64,000 nt of DNA from assembly GCA_030679255.1 (NCBI GenBank), contig JAUXTO010000017.1, positions 1,925-65,924 of the forward strand, in the 5' to 3' direction. The stretch is from Candidatus Gottesmanbacteria bacterium (GTDB lineage Bacteria; Patescibacteriota; Microgenomatia; UBA10105; UBA927). Below are positions 28,620 to 44,678 of this stretch, piece after piece (the first letter of the stretch is position 1; the number at the start of each line of letters is the position of its first letter). Under the pieces are notes generated by a model. The model did no database searches, was not told the origin of the DNA, and was given only the letters and a program-made list of their open reading frames with translations. A program made the translations under genes and the position numbers.

Positions 28620-29807
28620 ATGAATATCCTCGCAATCGAAACATCGTTCGATGAAACGGCTTGTGCGATTATTGAGGATGGAACGAAAATCATCAGTAAT
28701 GTTCTGGCAACGAGTCACGAAATGCATGATAAATACGGCGGGGTCGTGCCCGAAATCGCCGCACGCAGGCAACTCGAGTGCATCATCCCCGTGATCTCAG
28801 AATCTCTCCAACCCCTCGCCACTAGCAATTCTACACTTCTCCATAGAAGTGGAGAATTATTTCCTGATTGGATAAGAAAAACGATTAAAGAATCAATTGA
28901 TGCTATTGCCGTCACAGTCGGACCGGGACTCATTGGATCGCTTTTGGTCGGCGTGGAAACCGCCAAGACCATCGCATTCGTCACTGACAAGCCGATCATC
29001 CCCGTCAACCATGTACTTGCCCATATGTATGCGAATTTTCTCGATTCCAATCGTGAAAATTCGTCCCGAGCGCAGTCGAGGAAAACACTTATTGAATTCC
29101 CCTCCATCTCCCTCGTCGTATCCGGCGGACACACAGAACTTTATTTGATGAAGTCAGCCAAAGACCTGACGTGGATAGGAGGGACGCTGGATGATGCAGC
29201 AGGAGAATGTTTTGACAAAACTGCCCGTCTGTTGGGTTTCGGCCACGGCGGTGGAGTGGCAATAGAAGCTGCTGCTTCAAAATATCAAATAGCAAATAGC
29301 AAAAATCAAATAAAATTGCCTAGACCAATGATGGATGATAAAACGCTCAATTTTTCCTTCAGCGGACTGAAAACCGCGGTCATGAGGGAATGGAAAAAGT
29401 GTCATCCCGGACTTGATCCGGGATCCAGTTCAAAAAAAGATTCCGGCTCGGAGGCCGGAATGACAAGCGCCTTCGCCCACGAAATACAGGAAGCCATTAC
29501 CGATGTTCTTGTCAAAAAAACAATTCGCGCGGCAAAACAATATGAGGCAAAATCCATTCTCCTCTCCGGCGGTGTGGCAGCCAACACACGTCTCCGAGAA
29601 AAGTTTCTCTCTACACTTTCCACTTTACACTCTCCACTTTTTTTCGCGCCTCCCCCGTCTCTCTGCACCGATAACGCCGTCATGATCGCCGCGTGCGCCT
29701 ACTTCAATGGTGAATCCACAAATTGGCGCAACATTACTGCTGCGCCTGATTTGTCCGTTGAGCTTTTCAATTCTTCGCTCACAGATCAACTCCCAGATTC
29801 CTCTTGA
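28620..29807 (+). CDS. tsaD: tRNA N6-adenosine threonylcarbamoyltransferase TsaD (Kae1/Gcp family) with several in-frame insertions
   Basis: MNILAIETSFDETACAI, VSGGHTELY, DDAAGECFDKTARLLG, SGGVAANTRLR, CTDNAVMIA; extra segments relative to canonical TsaD are encoded by hairpin repeats. Confidence 0.85.
   Translation: MNILAIETSFDETACAIIEDGTKIISNVLATSHEMHDKYGGVVPEIAARRQLECIIPVISESLQPLATSNSTLLHRSGELFPDWIRKTIKESIDAIAVTVGPGLIGSLLVGVETAKTIAFVTDKPIIPVNHVLAHMYANFLDSNRENSSRAQSRKTLIEFPSISLVVSGGHTELYLMKSAKDLTWIGGTLDDAAGECFDKTARLLGFGHGGGVAIEAAASKYQIANSKNQIKLPRPMMDDKTLNFSFSGLKTAVMREWKKCHPGLDPGSSSKKDSGSEAGMTSAFAHEIQEAITDVLVKKTIRAAKQYEAKSILLSGGVAANTRLREKFLSTLSTLHSPLFFAPPPSLCTDNAVMIAACAYFNGESTNWRNITAAPDLSVELFNSSLTDQLPDSS
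29402..29465. repeat. about 64 bp two-hairpin repeat element (copy B), in-frame inside tsaD, encoding PGLDPGSSSKKDSGSEAGMT
   Basis: tcatcccggacttgatccgggatccagttcaaaaaaagattccggctcggaggccggaatgac; both stems keep pairing relative to copy A through compensatory changes. Confidence 0.8.
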
Positions 29808-30182
29808 TAAACAACAGACGCTCTCTTTGATCCGCTACTAGAATATATAAACAAAACCTCATCTTCACCAAAAAGATCAACAAAATCAAAAACTGCTTCA
29901 GCTTGCATGATACAGTCTAATGTTTTTGGTTCTGCGTCATAACGTCCATTTAATAGAGGCACCACCACAGAATCTCTACTACCGTCGTTCTCAACACCAC
30001 GCATAAAAATAGTAATCGATTCGGCCCCTACATTGACTGGAACGTTAACGCTATCGAATCCAACATCTTGTTTTCCCTTTTTTAGTACTGCTGAATCTTT
30101 AAATTTTAACCACTCTGGAACATCAGCCTTGTCATGAGCTTTTGGATTTCTCTGTTCATAGTCTACTCTAAAAACTGCCATC
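29786..30182 (-). CDS. hypothetical acidic protein
   Basis: start chosen at MAVFRVDYEQ with GGAGG RBS; no recognisable motif. Confidence 0.4.
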
Positions 30183-30221
30183 TCAAACACCTCCTCCGGG
30201 CAGATAGATAATCTGGAAGGT

Positions 30222-30231
30222 ACTCTCTCTC
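30222..30231. repeat. (CT)5 dinucleotide tract in bidirectional promoter region
   Basis: ctctctctct, read directly. Confidence 0.9.
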
Positions 30232-30258
30232 TGGGCAAAAGTCAAGAAAATGGGGTAT

Positions 30259-30330
30259 CCAGGTAGTAGAAACTCGACTGCATCCCAAAGTGATGCACGA
30301 TCTATCACTTGTCGAGTTTTCACTACCTGG
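30259..30330. mobile_element. 72 bp MITE-like element with 20 bp terminal inverted repeats, flanked by TAT
   Basis: ccaggtagtagaaactcgac...gtcgagttttcactacctgg; an identical copy sits at 33182-33253; absent from the otherwise homologous leader at 31290-31330. Confidence 0.65.
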
Positions 30331-30344
30331 TATACTTGGGATAT

Positions 30345-30668
30345 ATGGCTCACCCACCGAAGTCACTGCAAGGGACACTCTGGTCAAGCGATGTCAATCA
30401 ACTTGATCTCGACAAACACAGGGCCTACATCATCCACCAAATCCTCACGTTTGGCACCATGGATGAGCTCAAGTGGTTATTTGGGACCTACCCGAAACGG
30501 GAAATTGTCGATACATTTGTCCATCAACCAATGAAAATGTACCCAAATCATATCTATTGGTTCACAAAAAACCACCTCCTTTCTCTCCAACATACCCAGC
30601 TTGACGAACAAAACTATGTCACATCTCTTTTTGGACCAACTCGACCCCGAGCGGCAGCGGGTGTTTGA
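30345..30668 (+). CDS. small partner protein of AbiEii-like NTase (putative antitoxin/regulator), module 1
   Basis: MAHPPKSLQG...LDLDKHRAYIIHQIL...; paralogous to 31331 and 33268; 3' end overlaps the downstream NTase gene by about 53 nt. Confidence 0.6.
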   Translation: MAHPPKSLQGTLWSSDVNQLDLDKHRAYIIHQILTFGTMDELKWLFGTYPKREIVDTFVHQPMKMYPNHIYWFTKNHLLSLQHTQLDEQNYVTSLFGPTRPRAAAGV

Positions 30669-31263
30669 TAAACTCGCCGCGTTTGCCGATACCTTCGTCC
30701 TGGCCGGAGGCACTGCCATCATGCTTCAGATTGGTCATCGGAAGTCATTTGACTTCGATTGTTTTTCTCTCGACTCGCCTCCCAAAACAATTCTTCCCAA
30801 AGTGAAGCGCGTATTCGGCACGAACGTCTATCCAACGATCCAAACCCGAGACTTTCTCACCGTCTATACGCCGGAGCATGTTGAACTAACTTTTGCAAAA
30901 CACCCTTTTAAACCACTACGGCCTATCATGCAAACATCGTCCATCCCGCTCTTTCATATGGATGATCTCGTTGCAAACAAAGCCTATACCATCGGCAGGC
31001 GTCCGGCGTGGAGGGACTACGTCGATCTATTTTTTGTTCTGAAATGGAATCTCTATACGCTGGAAAATGTGATACAACTCGCAGAAAGAAAATTTTCAGG
31101 AGAATTCAACGCAAAGCTTCTCCTCCCTCAACTTACCTATTTTGAAGATATAAAACCCGCAGAAACTACATTTTTGAAAGAATCCTACAACGATGAGGAG
31201 ATCAAGGCGTTTCTCAACGATCAGGTGGACACCTACCTGGCAACCATCTTGCCACAAAAATAA
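30616..31263 (+). CDS. nucleotidyltransferase, AbiEii/AbiGii toxin-like (DUF1814-type), module 1
   Basis: FVLAGGTAIMLQIGHRKSFDFDCF matches the AbiEii N-terminal GGTAL...R.S.D.D motif; about 215 aa. Confidence 0.65.
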   Translation: MSHLFLDQLDPERQRVFDKLAAFADTFVLAGGTAIMLQIGHRKSFDFDCFSLDSPPKTILPKVKRVFGTNVYPTIQTRDFLTVYTPEHVELTFAKHPFKPLRPIMQTSSIPLFHMDDLVANKAYTIGRRPAWRDYVDLFFVLKWNLYTLENVIQLAERKFSGEFNAKLLLPQLTYFEDIKPAETTFLKESYNDEEIKAFLNDQVDTYLATILPQK

Positions 31264-31330
31264 CTTGTAGGATATTCAGGGACCGTCCCTAAATTACAAA
31301 AGTCAAGAAAATGGGGTATACTTCCTCTAT

Positions 31331-31630
31331 ATGGCTCATCCGCCGAAGTCGCTCCAAGCAGTACTGAAATCTGCAGCAATAGAAGACCTTGATTTGGAAA
31401 AAAATAAAGCCTATATCGTACACCAAATACTGGCATTCGGCTCGTGGGAACAAATGGTATGGTTACTCAATTATTACGGAGCCAATATGGTGCGGGAAGT
31501 CTTTCAAAAACAACCGATGAAACTCTATTCTCCGCAGGCCTTTCACTTTTCTCAACTTATTCTCAATACCCCTGATGCGCTAACACACAAAAATCATTAT
31601 GACCAAACTCTTTCTCGAGATCTTGGATGA
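31331..31630 (+). CDS. small partner protein, module 2
   Basis: MAHPPKSLQAVLKSAAIEDLDLEKNKAYIVHQILAFGS... Confidence 0.6.
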   Translation: MAHPPKSLQAVLKSAAIEDLDLEKNKAYIVHQILAFGSWEQMVWLLNYYGANMVREVFQKQPMKLYSPQAFHFSQLILNTPDALTHKNHYDQTLSRDLG

Positions 31631-32243
31631 CGCGCGGATATCTGTTCTAAAAAAATTAAGCGCATGCGCAAAAGACGCAGTACTTGCCGGTGGCACTTCT
31701 CTTGCTCTCCAGATAGGACACAGAAGATCCTTTGATTTTGATCTTTTTATCCCACGACCCATTCCGCGTACGCTCTACAAATCCATCCAAGAACTGTTCC
31801 ATGAATCACCCATGAAACATGTCGACACAGGAGACCAACTCACCGTAGAACTATCCTCCGGGATAGAAATCACATTTCTCTATTACTGGTACGCACCGCT
31901 TTATCCACCAATTCCCATGGCTGCACTTCCGCTTTGCGACAAGAGCGATATAGCCACAGACAAAGCAATGACCATCGGGAGACGCAATGCATGGCGCGAT
32001 TATGTAGATTTCTTTTTTCTTTTGAAAGACCGGCATGTCACACTCGCACAAATCATCACTGATGCCGAAAAACGCTTCGGAAATGAATTTTCGAAAAAAC
32101 TCTTTTTACAACAACTCTCCTACACTGGAGACATAAAAGATTTTTCTATTACCTATATCGGTGGCATTCATACACCACAGGAAATTACAGAATTTTTGGA
32201 ACGGCAAGCAAAAAATTACGCAACATCATCATTGCCGCTGTAG
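31599..32243 (+). CDS. nucleotidyltransferase, AbiEii-like, module 2
   Basis: AVLAGGTSLALQIGHRRSFDFDLF. Confidence 0.65.
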   Translation: MTKLFLEILDDARISVLKKLSACAKDAVLAGGTSLALQIGHRRSFDFDLFIPRPIPRTLYKSIQELFHESPMKHVDTGDQLTVELSSGIEITFLYYWYAPLYPPIPMAALPLCDKSDIATDKAMTIGRRNAWRDYVDFFFLLKDRHVTLAQIITDAEKRFGNEFSKKLFLQQLSYTGDIKDFSITYIGGIHTPQEITEFLERQAKNYATSSLPL

Positions 32244-32272
32244 CCGCCTCCTTCTTCATATCTGACTATCAC

Positions 32273-32734
32273 TTAAGAAGATTTTTTTATGACAAAGGCA
32301 TCGGTCAGAAGCCGCGACTGCCAATCGTACGCTTGGGCGACGTGTTCGGGGTTGCCTAATTTGACGAGCTCCTGGCTGATGAGTCGCGCCAAGTGATATC
32401 CTCCCAACGCTTCGCGATCAGCAGTTTGGACAAACAACGGGTGATCACGGTTGATAAAAATGATGCCTCCCTCCACAAAGCTCTAGCATGCCAAATTCAT
32501 GCCACCGATTTTGACGACACTCGCATCAGCGTCGTAGGCGTTGGCGACCAACTCCCGCACGAGATCCAGGCTCTCCGCACAGAGCCGGGTGCCGATAGTC
32601 GTCAGATGCGACTTATCAAGGGTAATGGGGATGGTAGACTGCTGCGCGGGGCTATTATATACCAAATATTCTGACAACGCCGTCATGATCGGAGCTGCTG
32701 CCTTTTTTAAAGGTATATCCACAGATTGGCCCAC
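32273..32734 (-). pseudogene. GHKL-ATPase N-terminal remnant with in-frame TAG (copy 1)
   Basis: LVRELVANAYDADASVVKIGGMNLAC-TAG-SFVEGGIIFINRDHP: Bergerat N-box (ELVxNAxDA) followed by a degenerate G1 box; truncated at both ends; its 5' part is antisense to the tsaD-3' duplicate. Confidence 0.5.
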
Positions 32735-32771
32735 AATTACTGCTACTCCTGATCTGGTTGTAGAAATATAG
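32665..32771 (+). repeat. duplicated tsaD 3'-end fragment (att-like scar)
   Basis: encodes DNAVMIGAAAFFKGISTDWPTITATPDLVVEI, close at both nt and aa level to the tsaD C-terminus DNAVMIAACAYFNGESTNWRNITAAPDLSVEL at 29680-29780. Confidence 0.7.
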
Positions 32772-32782
32772 ATATAAAATTT

Positions 32783-33091
32783 TTATTCTTTGGGAACGGA
32801 AGCCACGCTAACGCGAGGAAGAATACCTTTTTTATGATCTGCTATCTGCTCTACCGATGGGTTAAATACAACATATGATACCGGTCTTCCAGTTGTCAAA
32901 TCGATGACAGATCCACTAATCACGGGACTCCCGTCCGATAAATTTTCAGCGAAATTTGTTAGTGCGGCACCAAGACTTCCTGTGTCGAACAGCGTATTCA
33001 TCCCATCATGTTTTGCCTTTTCAACTCGCGCCTCTAAAACAATTTTCTCGAACGCATCTTCAACTCGTTCTAAGTCTCCTAGATTTGACAT
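32783..33091 (-). CDS. hypothetical protein
   Basis: 102 aa ORF divergent from module 3; no motif. Confidence 0.35.
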   Translation of the reverse strand: MSNLGDLERVEDAFEKIVLEARVEKAKHDGMNTLFDTGSLGAALTNFAENLSDGSPVISGSVIDLTTGRPVSYVVFNPSVEQIADHKKGILPRVSVASVPKE

Positions 33092-33143
33092 ATAAAACTC
33101 CTCCCTTTTTCTACTTGGTAATCTTAATTAATTTAAAATCCTA

Positions 33144-33155
33144 CTCTCTCTCTCT
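33144..33155. repeat. (CT)6 dinucleotide tract
   Basis: ctctctctctct. Confidence 0.9.
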
Positions 33156-33181
33156 GGAAAAATGTCAAGGAAGTGGGGTAT

Positions 33182-33253
33182 CCAGGTAGTAGAAACTCGA
33201 CTGCATCCCAAAGTGATGCACGATCTATCACTTGTCGAGTTTTCACTACCTGG
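33182..33253. mobile_element. 72 bp MITE-like element, second identical copy
   Basis: identical to 30259-30330; the surrounding roughly 113 nt is identical between copies although the downstream CDSs are only about 40-50% identical. Confidence 0.65.
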
Positions 33254-33267
33254 TATACTTGGGATAT

Positions 33268-33573
33268 ATGGCTCACCCACCGAAAGATCTCCAAGGGGCC
33301 CTCTGGTCAGCAGAGGTCAACACAATGGATTTGGAGAAAGATAAAAATTACATCATCCATCAGGTCTTTTCACACGGATCACTGGAGGATATGTTCTGGG
33401 TCTTGCGAACCTATCCCCGAGATAGCATCCGGCACGTCTTCGCCACAGTACCGTATAAAGACTACCGCGCACCACGGTTTTACTTCATAAAAAACTTCCT
33501 TCTTAATCTGCGAGATACTCCCATGAACGAACATCGTTATGTCAAAAATATTCCTCGAGATATTAGATCCTGA
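33268..33573 (+). CDS. small partner protein, module 3
   Basis: MAHPPKDLQGALWSAEVNTMDLEKDKNYIIHQVF... Confidence 0.6.
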   Translation: MAHPPKDLQGALWSAEVNTMDLEKDKNYIIHQVFSHGSLEDMFWVLRTYPRDSIRHVFATVPYKDYRAPRFYFIKNFLLNLRDTPMNEHRYVKNIPRDIRS

Positions 33574-34189
33574 ACGACAAAAAGTGTTTAGACAGCTCGC
33601 CGAGTTCCGTGGCGACGGGTATCTTGCCGGCGGCACCGCCCTTGCGCTACAACTTGGTCACCGCGTGTCGATTGATTTTGATGTATTCACCTATAAAGAG
33701 GTAAGTACGCGCCTCCGATCTGCCATTGCAAAACATTTTTCCATACAACAGGTTCATCTCAACACATCCGATCAATACACCTTCACGACCCATGGGAATA
33801 TCGAAGTGACCTTCGTATGGTTTGACTACCCGCTCATCCGTCCACTTATACCAACGCCATCTATCTCACTGGCTACAATAGTAGATATCGCAGCAAATAA
33901 AGCAAACACGCTCGGACTTCGCGCGGTGTGGCGGGACTATGTAGATCTTTTCTGGCTTTTGCGCGAAGAGGGCATGGTACTCCAAGATATTATTGCCTGG
34001 GCAAAACAAAAATACCCTACACAGTTCGTCGAAGCGCAATTTTTGGAACAGCTCTGCTACTTTGCTGATCTTACCGTAACGCCAATACAATTTTTCAAAA
34101 AACGCTATAGCACTAACGATATCCAATCATTCCTTCAAAAAGGAGTTGGTGCCTACCTGGACACAAGGAGAAAACAAGAGCTGCGATAA
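33539..34189 (+). CDS. nucleotidyltransferase, AbiEii-like, module 3
   Basis: YLAGGTALALQLGHRVSIDFDVF. Confidence 0.7.
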   Translation: MSKIFLEILDPERQKVFRQLAEFRGDGYLAGGTALALQLGHRVSIDFDVFTYKEVSTRLRSAIAKHFSIQQVHLNTSDQYTFTTHGNIEVTFVWFDYPLIRPLIPTPSISLATIVDIAANKANTLGLRAVWRDYVDLFWLLREEGMVLQDIIAWAKQKYPTQFVEAQFLEQLCYFADLTVTPIQFFKKRYSTNDIQSFLQKGVGAYLDTRRKQELR

Positions 34190-34279
34190 TCTCACCGGAC
34201 AACGCCGCCGCCTACTTCCTTGCATCTCGCATCTGGCCATCACAAAACTATGCACGTGCATAATATTGTGATCTTCTGA

Positions 34280-34675
34280 TTATGAAGAAGATTTCTTTAT
34301 GACAAAAGCATCGGTCAGAAGCCGCGACTGCCAATCGTACGCCTGAGCAATCTCTCCGGAACGGGCAAGTTTGACGAGCTCCTGGGTGATGAGTCGCGCC
34401 AAGTGATACCCTCCCAACCCTTCGCGGTCAGCAGTTTGGACAAACAACGGGTGATCACGGTTGATAAAAATGATGCCTCCCTCCACAAAGCTCTAGCATG
34501 CCAGATTCATGCCACCGGTTTTGACGACACTCGCATCAGCATCGTAGGCGTTGGCGACGAGCTCTCGCACGAGATCCAGGCTCTCCGCATAGAGCCGGGT
34601 GCCAATAGTAGTCAAGTGTGATTTATCAAACGTAATAGGGATCGTGGATTGCTGCACGGGACTATTATATACCAA
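34280..34675 (-). pseudogene. GHKL-ATPase N-terminal remnant with the same in-frame TAG (copy 2)
   Basis: about 90% nt identity to copy 1; LVRELVANAYDADASVVKTGGMNLAC-TAG-SFVEGGIIFINRDHP. Confidence 0.5.
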
Positions 34676-34808
34676 ACGCTCCTACAATTCCCCCAGCGAA
34701 AAAATCATGCCAATTTCCCTCCGGTCGGGAGTAAAATAGCATGATTTATTTTATGCCACCAATTCCGTCATGATCAGCGCCGCCGGACCGTCCCGAAATT
34801 CACTCTCA

Positions 34809-35141
34809 TTATTCCACCGAAACTACTGATATTGATCCATGTCCGTTCACATTACTCAATGTCACAGAAGGAACGCCATTATCAGGAAAAACCGTCACGC
34901 TTTTCAAGGATTCTGTATGTAATATACTCTCAAGGGTTTCCTGGGATACACGGTTCAAATCCAAACGAACTTTATCATCAGGAACATATTGAAAGGTAAC
35001 AACTAATACTTCATCATTTTCATTCGCCTCAATTATGCACTTCGCTTCACCATATGCTAGGTATTGTCTTTCTCCTGGCACCAATATTCCATGAAGAATT
35101 TCTTTGCCATCTTCTCCAATTTCAATCTTTTGAATTGCCAT
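34809..35141 (-). CDS. hypothetical acidic protein
   Basis: 110 aa ORF divergent from valS; shares an upstream region with 29786-30182 but not its sequence. Confidence 0.35.
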   Translation of the reverse strand: MAIQKIEIGEDGKEILHGILVPGERQYLAYGEAKCIIEANENDEVLVVTFQYVPDDKVRLDLNRVSQETLESILHTESLKSVTVFPDNGVPSVTLSNVNGHGSISVVSVE

Positions 35142-35183
35142 ATCATTTCACCTCCTCCAGGCAGATAGATAACTGGGAAGGTA

Positions 35184-35199
35184 CTCTCTCTCTCTCTCT
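35184..35199. repeat. (CT)8 dinucleotide tract
   Basis: ctctctctctctctct. Confidence 0.9.
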
Positions 35200-35233
35200 G
35201 CAAAAGTCAAGAAAAACAGTTACAATATGGAAC

Positions 35234-37507
35234 ATGGACAAAGCGTATAATCCGCAAGCAGTTGAGGAAGCCATATATAAGATGTGGGAAACCGGGGGAT
35301 ATTTTACCCCGAAATTAATTCCTAAAGAAGCCCTGCCTGCCGGCAGGCAGCCATTTTCCATCCTTCTCCCTCCACCCAACGCTAACGCTGACCTGCACGT
35401 CGGGCATGCGATGTATGTGGTCGAGGACATTATGATCCGCTATCACCGCATGAAGGGCGACCCCACGCTCTGGATGCCCGGGGCCGACCACGCAGGATTT
35501 GAGACGCAGTATGTGTATGAAAAACATTTGGCTAAACAGGGAAAGAGCCGGTTTGATTTTGACCGGGAGACACTGTATAAAGATATCTGGAACTTTGTCC
35601 ACACAAACCGCGGCTCGATGGAAAACCAACTCCGAAGGTTAGGGTTTTCGCTCGATTGGAGTCGAAACGTTTTTACCCTGGATCCTAGCATAGTTGAAAC
35701 GGTATACAAATCTTTTAAGCAGCTTTTTGACGAAGGACTTGTGTACCGCGATAAACGTCTGGTCAATTACTGCACCAAAGACGGTACCGGATTTTCGGAC
35801 CTCGAAGTCCTTTACGTCGAGCGCAATGACCCTCTCTACTATATTAAGTACGGCCCCTTCACTATCGCCACCGCCCGGCCGGAAACGAAATTCCGCGACA
35901 CGGCTCTCGCTGTCAACCCCAAAGACAAGCGCTATAAAAAGTACATCGGACAAACATTAGAAATTATGGGGCTCCTGGGTCCCATCACGATGACGGTCAT
36001 CCCTGATCCGCACGTCGATCCCAAATTTGGTACCGGCATCATGAAAGTGACACCGGCCCATGACCCGCATGATTTTGAGCTTGGACGGCAATTTAATCTG
36101 CCCGTCACTCCCATCATCGATTTCCGCGGAAAGATGGACTTTTCGTGGTTTCTCTCCCAAAAAGACATTGATCCTAAATATAGGGCACGGGCAGAAAATT
36201 ACCATGGTAAAAAAGTGGCCATCGTCCGGCCGCTCATGGTTGAAGATCTCAAAGCTGATGGACTGATGATAAAAATCGATGAAGCCTACACCCATCGGAT
36301 CGGTACCTGCTGGAAATGCGGAACCGTCATCGAGCCGCTTCCCCTGGAACAGTGGTATGTGAAAGTTGCCCCGATGACAAAAAAGGCAATCGAGGCGATC
36401 AATAAAAAACAAGTGACGTTTGTTCCGAAGCGGTTTGAAAAAACAGCCAAACAGTGGCTCACGAACTTCCATGACTGGAACATCAGCCGTCAAAATGTAT
36501 GGGGAATCCGGATCCCGGCATGGCACTGCGCACTTTGTGCGCAGAATCCGACCCGCTTCGCCAAAGCGATAGCGAGGCGAGCAAATACTACCAATAAGTC
36601 AAACGCTCAATCAATAAGACTCTCCGGATGGGTTGTGACGGATGGGGAAAAGCCAGAAACGTGTCCGACGTGCGGGGGCCGCGATCTCACCCAGGACACG
36701 GATACATTTGATACATGGTTTAGCTCGGGACAATGGCCCTTCGCAACGCTTCGCGCAACAAGAGACTTTGACTATTTCTATCCGACGACGGTCATGGAAA
36801 CGGGATATGACATCCTCCCCTGGTGGGTATGCCGGATGCTTATGCTCGGCATTCATTTAACCGGCAGCGTGCCGTTCACCACCGTCTATCTTCATGGACT
36901 CGTCCGGGATGCACAAGGTCAAAAAATGAGTAAGAGCAAAGGCAATGTCATCAATCCTCTCAAAATGGTTGATCAATACGGTGCCGATGCGCTCCGGATG
37001 GCGCTCGTGTTTGGCACGGGAGCGGGAAACGATCAGGCGCTCTCGGAAGACAAAATCCGTGGGATGCGGAATTTTGCCAATAAATTGTGGAACATTGGAC
37101 GGTTCATTGAAATGAACCTTCAAATCTCAAATCCCTATGACCAAATCACAATATACGATGAAAACATGCATAAAATGCTCAAAAATCCCAATGATAAACG
37201 GATCATTTCCCAAACGAATATGCTTGTTGCCGGAGTCACGAAGGATCTTGATCGATACCGATTCTCCGATGCTGCTCAGAAAATCTATAACTTTACCTGG
37301 CATACGCTCGCCGATGTGCATTTGGAAAAAAATAAAGAACGGTTTAAAGAAGGTGATGGTCAGGCAATAGCGGTTCTTCGACACGTCTTCCTCACGATCA
37401 TGAAACTTCTCCACCCGTTCATGCCTTTTGTGACGGAAGAAATCTGGAGCAAACTACCGAGAAAAACGACTGATCCTCTCATCATCTCCCCTTGGCCCGG
37501 GAATTGA
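35234..37507 (+). CDS. valS: valyl-tRNA synthetase (compact, no C-terminal coiled coil)
   Basis: PPPNANADLHVGHA (HIGH), KMSKSKGN (KMSKS), editing (CP1) and anticodon-binding regions. Confidence 0.9.
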   Translation: MDKAYNPQAVEEAIYKMWETGGYFTPKLIPKEALPAGRQPFSILLPPPNANADLHVGHAMYVVEDIMIRYHRMKGDPTLWMPGADHAGFETQYVYEKHLAKQGKSRFDFDRETLYKDIWNFVHTNRGSMENQLRRLGFSLDWSRNVFTLDPSIVETVYKSFKQLFDEGLVYRDKRLVNYCTKDGTGFSDLEVLYVERNDPLYYIKYGPFTIATARPETKFRDTALAVNPKDKRYKKYIGQTLEIMGLLGPITMTVIPDPHVDPKFGTGIMKVTPAHDPHDFELGRQFNLPVTPIIDFRGKMDFSWFLSQKDIDPKYRARAENYHGKKVAIVRPLMVEDLKADGLMIKIDEAYTHRIGTCWKCGTVIEPLPLEQWYVKVAPMTKKAIEAINKKQVTFVPKRFEKTAKQWLTNFHDWNISRQNVWGIRIPAWHCALCAQNPTRFAKAIARRANTTNKSNAQSIRLSGWVVTDGEKPETCPTCGGRDLTQDTDTFDTWFSSGQWPFATLRATRDFDYFYPTTVMETGYDILPWWVCRMLMLGIHLTGSVPFTTVYLHGLVRDAQGQKMSKSKGNVINPLKMVDQYGADALRMALVFGTGAGNDQALSEDKIRGMRNFANKLWNIGRFIEMNLQISNPYDQITIYDENMHKMLKNPNDKRIISQTNMLVAGVTKDLDRYRFSDAAQKIYNFTWHTLADVHLEKNKERFKEGDGQAIAVLRHVFLTIMKLLHPFMPFVTEEIWSKLPRKTTDPLIISPWPGN

Positions 37508-39971: not shown

Positions 39972-42179
39972 ATGAAACCCACACAAACAAATTCCAAGCT
40001 TCTTACGCCCAAAAAAAAACTGCCCCGGTGGACGAAATATTTTTTTTGGCTTTTGCCCATTGGACTTGTCCTTGTCTCGTACCTCCTTATCCTCAAAGAC
40101 CTCCCTTCTCCCACCAAGCTTGGGAATTATGACGTCCCGGTCGCAACAAAAGTTTATGACCGCAACGGACATTTGCTCTACGACATCTTCGCCGACCAAA
40201 ACAGATCTCCGATACCACTCGCCCACATCCCTAAATATCTCCAACAGGCAACCATTGCCATCGAAGATAAAGATTTTTACCGGCACGGAGGGATCAGTCC
40301 GGTGGGCGGCATGATCCGAGCAATAGTCGCCTCCGTCACGCGAAACAAACTCCAGGGCGGTTCAACGATCACCCAACAGCTTGTTAAATCAGCACTCTTA
40401 ACTTCTGAGCGCACCGTCACGCGTAAAATTAAAGAAATCATCCTCGCCTTTTGGGTCGAAATCCTCTACCCCAAAGATAAAATCCTTGAGATGTATCTCA
40501 ACCAAGTCCCCTATGGGGGTACGGCATGGGGCATAGAAACCGCATCAGAAAAATATTTCGGAAAATCCGCAAGTGAATTGACGCTTGCCGAAGCCTCACT
40601 TCTTGCCGGTCTTCCCCAGGCACCAACGCTCTATTCGCCCTACGGTGCCCATCCGGAATATGCCAAGACCCGCCAAAAAGAAGTGCTCCGCAGAATGGTC
40701 GAAGACCGCTATATCACGCAAGAAGAGTCCGACGCTGTCGACGCACAAACGCTCATCTATAAAAACGCACCGAACATCAAAGCTCCCCACTTTGTCATGT
40801 ATGTCAAACAAGAACTTGTTGACCGATTCGGAGAAGCACTCGTGGAACGCGGGGGGCTCAAAGTCACAACGACCTTAGATCTCCCGCTCCAGGAATATGC
40901 CCAGGCGACCGTAGCCGGAGAGGTCAAAGACTTAGCGAGGCTTGCGGTGACCAACGGCGCCGCTCTCGTCACGAAGCCCGCCACCGGCGAAATTCTTGCC
41001 ATGGTGGGGTCTACGGATTATTTTGCCTCCCCTTCCGGAACGTTTAATGTGACGACCGCCCTCCGGCAACCCGGATCTTCCATCAAACCCATTAATTATG
41101 CCATCGGCCTGGAAAAACGCATCGTCACCCCGGCGACGATGTTTTTGGATATTCCGACGTGTTTTAAAAACTTTGACCAGCCCAATTACTGCCCCAAAAA
41201 TTATGACGGGAAATTCCGCGGTCCTGTTCAGCTCCGGCTGGCGCTCGGAAACTCTTACAATATCCCGTCCGTCAAAATGCTGTACCTCAACTCAGTCCGC
41301 GATATGGTGGCTTCGGCGAGCGCCTTCGGCTTGGATACCCTCACTGATGCTGACCGCTATGGACTCTCATTGGCCCTTGGCGGTGGCGAGGTTCGCATGA
41401 CGGATATGGCCGAAGCATTTGGAGTGTTTGCAAATGGCGGAATACGCAAAAATTTAGTATCAATCCTGAAGGTCGTAGATAAACAAGGCTCCGTGCTCTT
41501 TGAATATAAAGATCCAAATCTCCAAAAAGAAATCCCTTCCCAACTCTTGCTCCAGGGACCACGGGCGGTAAGCGCGGAAACCGCATTTCTCATCTCGCAC
41601 ATACTTCTCGACAACAATGCGCGCCAGGATTCATTCGGTCCCCGTTCTAATCTCTATATTCCCAATCATGCCGTATCCGTCAAAACCGGCACCACGGATG
41701 ACCTCCGGGATAACTGGACCATCGGATTTACCCCTCAGGTGTTGGTAGCGGCTTGGGTCGGCAACAACGATAATTCAAAAATGAATCAAGCGCTTGTCTC
41801 CGGCGTGACCGGAGCCGCTCCCATCTGGAACAAGATTATGACACAAACACTAAACGGAAAGCCCGATGTGTGGCCCAAGCAGCCCGACGGCATCGTCGGA
41901 TCCCAAATCTGTGCGGTTTCCGGACTTCAGGCGCCCAACCCTGATGGCGAGGACAAAGGATGTCCAATGCGATTTGAATATTTTATCAATGGAACCGTAC
42001 CCAAGGAACGTGAAAATCTGAAGCGTTCGGTACTCATAGATAAAGAAACCGGCGATCTAGCACCCGCCGGTAAAACAGACAATGTGGAAATGCAGGAACA
42101 CACCGTGCTCTCCGATGGTATATCCACCTATTGCTTGGACTGCCCGCACGCGGAGGGCAGGGCTATATTAATCAAATGA
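39972..42179 (+). CDS. class A penicillin-binding protein (PBP1A family: transglycosylase + transpeptidase)
   Basis: EDKDFYRHGG, GGSTITQQL (GT51), SSIKP (SxxK), KTGTT. Confidence 0.85.
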   Translation: MKPTQTNSKLLTPKKKLPRWTKYFFWLLPIGLVLVSYLLILKDLPSPTKLGNYDVPVATKVYDRNGHLLYDIFADQNRSPIPLAHIPKYLQQATIAIEDKDFYRHGGISPVGGMIRAIVASVTRNKLQGGSTITQQLVKSALLTSERTVTRKIKEIILAFWVEILYPKDKILEMYLNQVPYGGTAWGIETASEKYFGKSASELTLAEASLLAGLPQAPTLYSPYGAHPEYAKTRQKEVLRRMVEDRYITQEESDAVDAQTLIYKNAPNIKAPHFVMYVKQELVDRFGEALVERGGLKVTTTLDLPLQEYAQATVAGEVKDLARLAVTNGAALVTKPATGEILAMVGSTDYFASPSGTFNVTTALRQPGSSIKPINYAIGLEKRIVTPATMFLDIPTCFKNFDQPNYCPKNYDGKFRGPVQLRLALGNSYNIPSVKMLYLNSVRDMVASASAFGLDTLTDADRYGLSLALGGGEVRMTDMAEAFGVFANGGIRKNLVSILKVVDKQGSVLFEYKDPNLQKEIPSQLLLQGPRAVSAETAFLISHILLDNNARQDSFGPRSNLYIPNHAVSVKTGTTDDLRDNWTIGFTPQVLVAAWVGNNDNSKMNQALVSGVTGAAPIWNKIMTQTLNGKPDVWPKQPDGIVGSQICAVSGLQAPNPDGEDKGCPMRFEYFINGTVPKERENLKRSVLIDKETGDLAPAGKTDNVEMQEHTVLSDGISTYCLDCPHAEGRAILIK

Positions 42180-42182
42180 ATT

Positions 42183-42297
42183 AATCCGACCAATTTACCA
42201 ATCCGACAAATGAATAATCCAATGACGTAATGATTCAATCATTTTTCCTCATCGTTCCAATAATTGGGTTATTGGTCTGGATTGGTCGGATTCCAAC
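42183..42297. repeat. long imperfect inverted repeat (about 45 nt arms) rich in CCAAT/ATTGG between the two PBP genes
   Basis: aatccgaccaatttaccaatccgac...gtctggattggtcggatt; candidate terminator/attenuator or regulator binding site. Confidence 0.6.
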
Positions 42298-42347
42298 TAT
42301 TTTTCTGCTTGTATCCGACCCATAGTCTGTGGTATAACGCGTCCATC

Positions 42348-44678
42348 ATGCTTCCTAAACCAAAAAACATAAAAAGGACTACATCTGCACCGTCCCGACC
42401 GGTCGTTTTTTTTCTTGCGCTTGCCTATATTCTTATGGCTCTCGGAGATGGAGTACGGATGGGTTTTTGGTGGGTCATACGATTGATAATCGTATCCTAT
42501 AAAAAAATTTCCTTACAATCCCGTCCGGTCAAAATATTGGTAACAACGATACGGATGCGTATGCGCGTGGCAATAAGCGTCCGGAAGTTATTCCTCCGTC
42601 AATGGATACAACGGGTAATACCATCAACCAAACCGAAGAAATACGCACGCAAGAACAGACGATGGAACGACATACTTCCCAAATTTTCCCTACCGCAATT
42701 TATTGGGCTCCATCCACTCATGGTTTTCATCTTAGGATCTCTCTCAACGATATTTTTTATCGCGATTCCGCTCATTGCCTATCTCTGGCTCCGCTCTCTC
42801 CCGAACCCTACTCTCCTTACAGTCCGCGATCTTGATGTGACGACAAAGGTCTTTGACCGAAATGGGGCGCTCTTGTATGAAATTTACGCCGATCAAAACC
42901 GCACGCCACTTGCTTTGAGCGACATTCCAAAATACGTCATCCAGGCAACGATAGCCATTGAAGATAAAAATTTTTATTCCCACCAGGGATTTTCCCTCTC
43001 CGGCATGGCCCGCGCCGCACGGGAAACCATGCTCAAGGGCCGCGTTCAAGGAGGATCGACTATTACACAACAGCTCATAAAGTCAGCGCTCCTCACCCCG
43101 GAAATAAACGTTTCCAGAAAGATTAAAGAGATCATTCTCGCTTTTTGGGCAGAACGTCTGTACACAAAAAATCAATTATTAGAAATGTACCTCAATCAAG
43201 TGCCGTATGGGGGCACTGCGTGGGGTATAGAATCCGCGGCACAAACGTATTTTAGTAAATCGGCAAAAAACCTAACCCTCGCTGAAGCTTCACTTTTAGC
43301 AGGACTTCCTGCTGCTCCGAGCGAATATTCACCATTTGGCACGCATGTCGACCGGGCGTTTTCCCGCCAGGGAGAAGTGCTCCGGAGAATGGTCGAAGAC
43401 CGGTATATTACTGAATCTCAAGCCCGGGAAGCCCTCGCGCAGGAAATCCGCTTTGCAAAACCCCGGATCGGTATCCGCGCTCCGCACTTTGTCATGTATA
43501 TTAAAGAAATTCTTGAACGCCGCTACGGCCCGAGGCTCGTCGAACGCGGGGGCCTGCGAATAAAAACGTCGCTTGATCTGGGCCTCCAGGAACGTGTCGA
43601 AGAAATAGTCAATACCAATATTACAAAGCTTGCCTCCCTTCGCGTCGGCAACGGAGCGGCGATCGTCACGAATCCAAAAACCGGAGAAATACTTGCGATG
43701 GTCGGAAGCCGGGACTATTTTGATACCACGCGTGAAGGCAACGTCAATGTCACGGTTGCACACCGGCAACCAGGATCATCCATCAAGGTGGTGACCTATG
43801 CCGCCGCTATGGAAAAAGGGTTTACTGCCGGCTCAATTCTTGATGATAGTCCGGTTTCCTATCCGCAAATCGGTGCACCTGCTTATACCCCGGTCAATTA
43901 TGACAGTAAATTCCATGGCTTTGTGCCTCTCCGGTACGCGCTGGGAAATTCTTATAATATCCCGGCAATACGCACGATAGCCGCAATCGGCGTCCCGGCT
44001 GTCATCCAAAAGGGTCGGGCTATGGGCATCACTTCTTGGATCGACGAAAGTAGGTATGGACTCGCGCTTACGTTAGGCGGCGGAGAAGTCACTATGCTTG
44101 ATATGGCTTCAGTCTTTGGTACATTAGCAAATTTGGGAACGAGAGTAGAATTATTACCCATCACAGAGGTGAGCGATTATACGGGCAGAATTCTCGAAAA
44201 AAATAAATCAAACGAACGCCCACAGGCAGTCAAACCGGAAGTTGCCTGGATCATTGGAAATATCTTAAGTGATAATAATGCGCGGACTGCTGCCTTCGGC
44301 CCCAACTCGATGCTCGTCATCCCCGGTAAAACGGTGTCAGTCAAAACCGGCACGACCGATAACCTGCGGGACAACTGGACCATCGGCTACACGCCAAGCG
44401 TTGTTGCTTCCGTCTGGGTGGGAAACAACAACAACAGCCCGATGAATCCCTACCTTGTCTCCGGAGTTACCGGCGCCGCGCCGATCTGGAATGCCATCAT
44501 GACGGATATCCTCAAAGACCGACCTGATGAAACACTCCCGCGTCCTGACGGCGTCATCAGTGTCCCCTGCTACTATGGCCGCCCTGAATATTTTCTCATC
44601 GGTACCCAACCCACGAGCGGCCAGTGCGCTCCACTCCCTACACCACGACCAACCGAAAGTCCTACGCCTACTCCGTAA
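42348..44678 (+). CDS. class A penicillin-binding protein, second paralog
   Basis: EDKNFYSHQG, GGSTITQQL, SSIKV, KTGTT; start chosen at MLPKPKN. Confidence 0.85.
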   Translation: MLPKPKNIKRTTSAPSRPVVFFLALAYILMALGDGVRMGFWWVIRLIIVSYKKISLQSRPVKILVTTIRMRMRVAISVRKLFLRQWIQRVIPSTKPKKYARKNRRWNDILPKFSLPQFIGLHPLMVFILGSLSTIFFIAIPLIAYLWLRSLPNPTLLTVRDLDVTTKVFDRNGALLYEIYADQNRTPLALSDIPKYVIQATIAIEDKNFYSHQGFSLSGMARAARETMLKGRVQGGSTITQQLIKSALLTPEINVSRKIKEIILAFWAERLYTKNQLLEMYLNQVPYGGTAWGIESAAQTYFSKSAKNLTLAEASLLAGLPAAPSEYSPFGTHVDRAFSRQGEVLRRMVEDRYITESQAREALAQEIRFAKPRIGIRAPHFVMYIKEILERRYGPRLVERGGLRIKTSLDLGLQERVEEIVNTNITKLASLRVGNGAAIVTNPKTGEILAMVGSRDYFDTTREGNVNVTVAHRQPGSSIKVVTYAAAMEKGFTAGSILDDSPVSYPQIGAPAYTPVNYDSKFHGFVPLRYALGNSYNIPAIRTIAAIGVPAVIQKGRAMGITSWIDESRYGLALTLGGGEVTMLDMASVFGTLANLGTRVELLPITEVSDYTGRILEKNKSNERPQAVKPEVAWIIGNILSDNNARTAAFGPNSMLVIPGKTVSVKTGTTDNLRDNWTIGYTPSVVASVWVGNNNNSPMNPYLVSGVTGAAPIWNAIMTDILKDRPDETLPRPDGVISVPCYYGRPEYFLIGTQPTSGQCAPLPTPRPTESPTPTP

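Follow-up and report, generated by a model that had tools for sequence, protein, structure and literature searches.

A 72-nt inverted-repeat element before DUF6922/AbiEii modules of a Gottesmanbacteria genome: a probable member of a mobile family in Patescibacteria with a GIY-YIG nuclease partner

Between tsaD (28620-29807) and valS (about 35240-37507), a 64-kb stretch of a Candidatus Gottesmanbacteria contig (JAUXTO010000017.1; the whole stretch of 64,000 nucleotides is hereafter called the window) carries a variable island with three DUF6922/AbiEii modules, which are toxin-antitoxin-type operons. Two of the three modules are preceded by a 72-nt segment with inverted ends, identical at 72/72 positions between the two places, and the locus thus raises the question of what this segment is, how it came to stand in two of the leaders, and where it lies relative to the promoter of the operon. 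We conclude, with a probability of roughly 0.8, that the segment is a non-autonomous element, or miniature inverted-repeat transposable element (MITE), of a mobile family spread across Patescibacteria, also known as the candidate phyla radiation (CPR). A MITE had already been proposed in the initial annotation of this DNA; the main gain beyond it is the recognition of a GIY-YIG nuclease gene as the coding partner of the family and of the family's habit of inserting at start codons.

Ends, copies and hosts of the family

The two identical copies with their 20-nt inverted ends, TAT flanks and inner hairpin were all seen again as initially described. The arms, CCAGGTAGTAGAAACTCGAC and GTCGAGTTTTCACTACCTGG, are complementary at 18 of 20 positions, and the mismatch falls at positions 10-11, as it does in nearly all members of the family. 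The arm pattern matched four times in the window and not once in any of 100 window shuffles; no further arms were found in the window at up to six mismatches. The folding proposed for the leader was also borne out, since the element folds far better than shuffled sequences, both as RNA (-34.2 kcal/mol, z = -7.5) and, together with its flanks, as single-stranded DNA (ssDNA; -22.1 kcal/mol, z = -8.7). No Rfam 15 covariance model reached its gathering score anywhere in the window and none matched 30150-30450 at E up to 10; no tRNA or tmRNA was detected in the window.

We scanned a collection holding one genome per species for the arm 20-mer, with AG or GA allowed at positions 10-11, and obtained 48 genome stretches (L001-L048), against about four expected by chance as estimated from the collection size. 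Essentially all of them derive from metagenome-assembled genomes (MAGs) of Patescibacteria/CPR, many from the same genome, and the hosts comprise Saccharibacteria, Parcubacteria and Harrison-, Gottesman-, Lipton-, Jorgensen-, Portnoy- and Paceibacteria. The pattern had no match in viral contigs. With degenerate arms allowed, the 48 stretches and the window together hold 56 paired-arm elements, 55 of them 65-155 nt long and one of 323 nt (L008). Their ends are a near-invariant 20-nt sequence, CCAGGTAGT(AG/GA)AAACTCGAC, around a variable core; the asymmetry at positions 10-11 is fixed and kept, and other arm changes are concerted on both sides (e.g., C-G to T-A at positions 15 and 20). A small GC-rich hairpin occupies the position of the inner hairpin in many members, its sequence not being conserved.

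Exact 4-bp direct repeats flank 38 of the 53 tabulated elements, and a few elements have repeats of 3 or 5 bp. They vary in sequence with the copy (CATA, TATG, CATT, AATG, GATG, CATG, TATA, TATT, CAAA, TTTA, TACG, TCATA and TATGA) and have an AT core, most often in the form N-ATG/CAT-N. Their direct rather than inverted orientation, and the fact that the left and right repeats vary together, identify them as duplications of the target and not as element sequence. One Saccharibacteria MAG carries four copies on four contigs, in which almost every element column is invariant and the flanks are unrelated (flanking repeats CATT, CATT, CATG and CATA; the contig end truncates the last copy); near-identical copies in unrelated surroundings indicate recent spread within a genome. 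Multiple copies per genome are also shown by seven stretches in the MAG CAZHYH01 and five copies within 8 kb in L046. The traits of a MITE found for the segment are its terminal inverted repeats, a target duplication that varies with the copy, ends in common with a coding element, and an empty site in a paralogous leader, the last two of which are described below. By the initial annotation, a lack of further copies and of duplicated flanks elsewhere would have spoken against a MITE; dozens of copies with the same ends and with copy-specific flanking duplications were found in other Patescibacteria genomes, and the proposal of a MITE-type mobile element stands.

Two MAGs with the element bear labels outside the CPR, namely CAYHFH01 ('Gammaproteobacteria'; L003) and QYPD01 ('Spirochaetia'; L018, L030, L032 and L038). 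The 149-nt element of L003 and its 20-nt left flank are the same as in L017, a Patescibacteria MAG, which suggests that these contigs were probably mis-binned.

Start codons and a nuclease gene between the same ends

In 38 of the 56 elements, an ATG inside the duplication opens an open reading frame (ORF) of at least 60 codons, which starts 1 nt after the arm. Abutment to a start codon would be expected for about 16% when non-coding ATG/CAT sites plus start codons are taken as the baseline (p about 4e-19); the statistic rests on crude gene calls, and a threefold error in the baseline still leaves a strong excess. The distal flank likewise ends in ATG in 31 of the 36 start-codon copies of 200 nt or less, and in 31/31 of these the distal ATG opens an ORF of 8-38 codons (MPGSENST..) that ends inside the element. 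A read-through fusing the duplicated upstream ATG to the host gene was considered and rejected (0/31), because all of these ORFs stop inside the element. Nor did the MITEs follow a strict rule of orientation relative to the abutted gene, there being merely a bias (25 to 11). In L004, L022 and the window, short copies instead lie in a TATA(CT) box whose distance to the downstream start codon is 12-16 nt, and the junction CCTGG/TATACT recurs in L020 and L023 also.

Two distant lineages carry an element at the 5' end of a gene that, by its HPF-like N-terminus as recognised by eye, encodes a ribosome hibernation factor (L008, 4612-4986; L014, 4609-5019). In L014 the MITE sits on the start codon; the nearest element of L008 stops about 5 nt short of the ATG, on its upstream side. 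Further abutted genes encode ribosomal protein S6, GrpE and an S1-domain protein. The insertions suggest a bias to highly expressed genes.

The interior of the 323-nt copy in L008 is exactly an ORF of 90 amino acids (aa) with a GIY-YIG domain (Pfam PF01541, E = 1e-16, residues 3-72), and the protein has >530 close homologues, mostly in Patescibacteria. Eight homologue loci were fetched without regard to their context, and 8/8 turned out to be bracketed by family arms in units of 310-328 bp; together with L008, all nine independent loci for a 90-aa single-domain GIY-YIG protein are bracketed, with the arms precisely at the ORF ends. Seven of the nine show a perfect TATG or AATG duplication, the right copy of which is the start codon of a co-directional host gene. 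The host genes include those for AMMECR1-like, sigma-70-like, GrpE, NYN, ribosomal protein S6 and helix-turn-helix (HTH) proteins. The nuclease ORF is the sole gene of the unit and stops 17-22 nt before the host ATG, and in many cases its frame is that of the duplicated host ATG. In no fewer than 38 of 120 homologues, the annotated protein begins with MPGSENS.., which corresponds to in-frame translation from the duplicated host ATG through the left arm.

By analogy with the Ssn nucleases compared below, we favour the GIY-YIG nuclease as the mobilising enzyme, with some reserve. It would work in trans, with the hairpin or cruciform of the paired ends as its substrate, and the short elements would be mobilised by it. 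A bolder proposal, which we advance tentatively and at slightly less than even odds, is that the 0.3-kb arm-nuclease-arm units are self-sufficient transposons: they would recognise the hairpin or cruciform of their own ends, insert with a 4-bp duplication at start codons, and borrow the host's initiation through the in-frame MPGSENST.. leader, the host gene restarting 1 nt after the right arm. If this is the case, the units would be the smallest autonomous DNA transposons known to us, and start codons would be a dedicated target of a mobile element. The habit of inserting exactly on start codons of genes for core functions (e.g., rpsF, grpE and HPF) also raises the question of how organisms with reduced ribosomes initiate translation 1 nt downstream of a 20-bp stem.

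Elements also occur in clusters. Five MITE copies, two of them back to back, lie within 8 kb in L046 (1080-7883); a nuclease unit and a MITE are separated only by CATA in L008 (4143-4603), and a MITE and a nuclease unit stand 29 nt apart in L081 (1079-1486). An element may insert beside another one, or may take the flank of another as its target.

The two copies in the window

The leader of module 2 (31313-31325) reads GGGGTAT/ACTTCC, while the filled leaders read GGGGTAT, the 72 nt and then TATACTTGG. As initially described, the two types of leader are colinear and module 2 is without exactly the element, that is, 72 nt and one TAT. No orthologous empty site was found, the corresponding site in the relative L086 being filled as well. 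In the module-2 leader, a promoter scan predicted an ATTACA-18-TATACT site 8 nt before the ATG, and this empty site shows that the element split a TATACT box: it was inserted in TAT/ACT of this -10-like box, 16 nt upstream of the DUF6922/AbiEii module. TATACT now stands directly 3' of the element (30331-30336), and the ATG of module 1 is at 30345. The TAT duplication rebuilt the box on the 3' side, and the element end would give it a TG and a TTGTCG -35-like hexamer, with which the operon would keep a promoter. At both copies, a hybrid site TTGTCG-16-TATACT with the upstream TG is indeed predicted, as consensus matches only. Since this hybrid site is predicted at the 3' edge, the element is probably located upstream of the transcription start. 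The initial annotation had placed the element between the -10 box and the start codon, and had derived from this a structured 5' untranslated region (UTR) or an N-terminal extension, MSSFHYLVYLGY. This order has to be reversed, as the -10-like box lies 3' of the element; a 5' UTR is disfavoured by the predicted promoter, from which transcription would probably start downstream of the element, and the N-terminal extension found no support. An outward sigma-70-type promoter in the arm itself was not seen, TCTACT and TTCACT being poor by eye, and only the TATACT junction of the window scores.

The identity between the two filled leaders exceeds the element. The initial annotation had given about 113 nt of complete identity including the codons for MAHPPK; the block is fully identical, its length being 111 nt. 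Between modules 1 and 3, protein identity is only 44% for DUF6922 and 39% for AbiEii, in agreement with the divergence noted before. We consider it probable, judging from these sequences, that the two copies represent one insertion, which was later copied through gene conversion over 111 nt or more. Such a history is suggested by the atypical 3-bp duplication shared by the copies and by 8 and 31 nt of identical flank on the left and right, respectively, beside modules that are about 40% identical, and the gene conversion that the initial annotation offered as an alternative fits these data. Its other possibility, two separate insertions, would require the same hot-spot sequence to be hit in two paralogous leaders. 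The strong target preference of the family (AT core; TATA/TATACT junctions recurring in short copies) and the sequence GGGGTATACTT common to both leaders are compatible with that, yet we find it improbable, because both copies share the atypical duplication, because the identity runs 31 nt past the element, where module 2 differs at 6/28 positions, and because a relative points to recombination here.

This relative was found in a metagenome scan for the specific core of the element, which returned two of its contigs (L086 and L087; tsaD 78% identical to that of the window). The same island site has only one DUF6922/AbiEii module there, beside an MNT/HEPN pair. This module shows 91% identity to module 3, and before it stands the same element, 72/72 identical, at the same site and with the same TAT flanks. 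The N-terminal region combines module-1-like with module-3-like sequence as a mosaic, a sign of recombination in the region. In the only other assembly with the exact proteins (Logan SRR13727518; L084 and L085), the first base of the contigs falls within the 111-nt repeat, 13 nt ahead of the DUF6922 ATG; short-read assemblies break off at the element.

Several observations weigh against the segment being a MITE of a nuclease-mobilised family. The window holds only two paralogous copies of the 72-nt subtype, both with a 3-bp duplication and off the start codon, and neither tblastn nor a profile search detected a GIY-YIG/Ssn-type ORF in the window. The MITE cores have nothing in common with the interiors of the nuclease units; a derivation of the cores as deletion remnants of the nuclease gene was rejected, as only short AT-rich chance matches were obtained. 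The association of arms and gene is no proof that the GIY-YIG protein catalyses the movement: to our knowledge, GIY-YIG enzymes are hydrolytic nucleases, and we know of no mechanism by which they would give a 4-bp duplication. The promoter sites are no more than consensus matches. Finally, the element is unchanged in the relative beside a module of 91% identity, for which P is about 0.001 if the element is neutral (9% divergence). This perfect conservation hints at constraint or homogenisation rather than passive junk; host constraint, homogenisation, and transfer of the module with its leader are all possible. Some of these points would suit ordinary MITEs moved by a DDE transposase that escaped capture (e.g., IS5-, IS701- or IS1380-like), the GIY-YIG gene being a mere frequent passenger or a homing-type invader. 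Terminal inverted repeats with a target duplication of fixed length are the textbook signature of DDE enzymes, and the unrelated cores speak for such a source too. We nevertheless regard it as quite unlikely. No DDE transposase lies between such arms in the 48 genome stretches, where no arm pair more than 330 nt apart encloses one, and a candidate full-length insertion sequence in L036, whose arms are separated by about 1 kb, turned out to consist of two distinct MITEs with an ordinary gene between them. Solo matches to degenerate arms (L014, L021, L028 and L018) fall inside unrelated genes and are chance matches or remnants, viral contigs gave zero matches, and in 9/9 nuclease loci the arms stand precisely at the ORF ends.

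The perfect conservation would also be explained if the host had co-opted the element as a selected cis-regulatory part of the DUF6922/AbiEii leader, whether as a promoter module, as an operator for the antitoxin-like protein or as a 5' UTR structure. All three copies, two in the window and one in the relative, are 72/72 identical beside modules with 91% identity between the relatives and about 40% protein identity between the paralogues; the element gives TG and TTGTCG to the predicted promoter, the CCTGG/TATACT junction occurs in five independent short copies (L004, L020, L022, L023 and the window), and the fold is very stable. Module 2, however, functions with the same leader lacking the element, the rest of the family stands at unrelated genes with no tie to toxin-antitoxin modules, Rfam gave no match even at E up to 10, and the identity could equally result from gene conversion or from cassette transfer of the module. 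On balance, we rate co-option as a minor possibility. A repeat that involves no mobile element at all, being the remnant of a recent segmental duplication of the leader, would accord with an identity block longer than the element, 111 nt, and with an island built as a whole, from tsaD to valS, of repeated units. The same ends recur, however, at dozens of unrelated loci and lineages with flanking duplications of their own, and the empty site in module 2 is precise, so that this explanation is hardly tenable. For the window, membership in the mobile family explains the repeat, and the position of the element relative to the promoter of the toxin-antitoxin-type operon is corrected. The features are compiled in Table 1.

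Table 1. Coordinates of the element copies, their flanks and the associated modules in the window
Feature	Position	Strand	Remarks
Putative MITE, copy 1	30259..30330		72 nt; reverse relative to nuclease-bearing units, AG-type arm on left
Putative MITE, copy 2	33182..33253		72 nt; TAT flanks 33179-33181 and 33254-33256
Left 20-nt terminal inverted repeat, CCAGGTAGTAGAAACTCGAC	30259..30278	+	Exact 20-mer common to many CPR genomes
Right 20-nt terminal inverted repeat, GTCGAGTTTTCACTACCTGG	30311..30330	+	
Inner small hairpin, TGCATC-CCAAAGT-GATGCA	30279..30297	+	Adjoins one arm
Left target duplication, TAT	30256..30258		
Right TAT duplication plus ACT, TATACT -10-like box	30331..30336	+	Preceding TG from element end
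TTGTCG, -35-like hexamer supplied by element	30309..30314	+	16 nt upstream of TATACT; consensus match only
Hybrid promoter-like site TTGTCG-16-TATACT at copy 2	33232..33259	+	Consensus match only
Paralogous empty site, intact TATACT in module-2 leader	31317..31322	+	Part of predicted ATTACA-18-TATACT
111-nt block, 100% identical to 33174-33284	30251..30361	+	Left flank 8 nt, element, right flank 31 nt (with MAHPPK codons)
Module 1	30345..31263	+	DUF6922 gene 30345-30668, AbiEii-type nucleotidyltransferase gene 30616-31263; downstream of copy 1
Module 3	33268..34189	+	DUF6922 gene 33268-33573, AbiEii gene 33539-34189; downstream of copy 2

The island around the modules has a repetitive organisation of its own. 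Three units (29670-30258, 32673-33181 and 34760-35223) each consist of a tsaD 3' fragment, a small minus-strand ORF and a CTCTCTCT..GTCAAGAAAA leader, and the region 29670-35223 looks as though a single attachment point had received cassettes repeatedly. Among these units, the small minus-strand ORFs show no homology to one another (15-19% identity). Two 300-nt fragments on the minus strand (32275-32574 and 34285-34584) are 91% identical to each other and contain ORF remnants with a GHKL-ATPase-like ELVANAYDADA motif recognised by eye; they gave no Pfam match. Elsewhere in the window, G-rich TTAGGG/TTTGGGG-like imperfect inverted repeats (1970-2440) lie inside an ORF (1974-2612) whose match to the 23S rRNA intervening-sequence protein family stays below threshold. 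The adjacent ORFs 39972-42179 and 42264-44678 have several conserved blocks in common (70-88% identity over 45-125 nt) and are probably tandem paralogues.

Comparison with known systems

In the literature searched on MITEs or GIY-YIG elements in CPR, we found no description of this family, and we compared it with four systems known from elsewhere. The MPME of mycobacteriophages are ultra-small elements of about 440 bp with short inverted repeats and one small ORF. The CPR unit resembles them in its very small size, inverted ends and single small ORF, while the host range and the ORF family differ; neither start-codon targeting nor a swarm of MITEs is known to us for MPME. The Correia/NEMIS MITEs of Neisseria are short, have terminal inverted repeats and a target duplication, occur in many intergenic copies and can donate promoter hexamers. 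The CPR family is likewise short, with inverted ends, target duplications and many copies. Correia elements, however, duplicate TA and are ascribed to DDE-type transposition, whereas the CPR family has a 4-bp duplication with an AT/ATG core, the sole coding partner found is a GIY-YIG gene, and most copies abut a start codon. With the REP/REPIN-RAYT systems, the family shares dispersed hairpin repeats, a small nuclease gene flanked by the same repeats, and a probable action on ssDNA hairpins. RAYTs are HUH/Y1 enzymes (IS200/IS605-like Y1 transposases), and REPINs are not known to have target duplications; the CPR partner is a GIY-YIG protein and the duplications are clear, so that the family is not of the REP/REPIN type.

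The closest known system is that of the Ssn GIY-YIG ssDNA nucleases with flanking hairpin repeats. In the sections of the paper of Chenal et al. drawn on here (Nat Commun 2025, PMC11893778), where REP/REPIN elements with RAYT are discussed as well, Ssn proteins are single-domain GIY-YIG enzymes of about 94 aa (cd10448) that cut ssDNA next to hairpin repeats. These repeats, NTS/dRS3 in Neisseria and 'SRM' elsewhere, flank the ssn gene and occur in hundreds of copies, and the repeat-gene-repeat unit is likened to an insertion sequence by its authors. The CPR gene similarly encodes a single-domain GIY-YIG protein, of 90 aa, and is bracketed by repeats that are also multicopy around other genes; its product is a homologue of the 94-aa protein of N. 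meningitidis, at 32% identity (hhalign probability 96.8%, E = 2e-10). On the other hand, the CPR arms pair with each other and have the gene in the loop, whereas each Ssn repeat forms a hairpin by itself, and the published SRM motif HGTCWY..RNCYNB, searched as a regular expression, had no match in the window element or in the eight nuclease units with their flanks. With UPF0213 and SLX1 structures, the CPR proteins also give better scores than the Neisseria-type profile (for UPF0213 1zg2, 1.8e-8 versus 0.13). CPR are absent from the main text of that paper, and its sections drawn on here report neither target duplications nor start-codon targeting. We therefore treat the CPR unit as one that may work like the Ssn/repeat unit, and claim no membership.

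The practical consequences for streamlined genomes are that the elements break assemblies, produce false N-terminal extensions (MPGSENST..) in gene calls, and may reshape promoters. Beyond these, the comparison with Ssn gives the family its wider interest. Nucleases of this small GIY-YIG type with hairpin repeats at their sides were characterised no earlier than 2025. The mobility of Ssn nuclease/hairpin units was left as a hypothesis in the 2025 work, as far as the sections drawn on here go (PMC11893778), and the CPR family supplies clear target duplications, recent multiplication inside a genome and a swarm of short derivative elements, to which the insertion on start codons is added. If the 0.3-kb units are genuinely self-sufficient, they would provide the first evidence of real transposition by Ssn-like nuclease/hairpin units.

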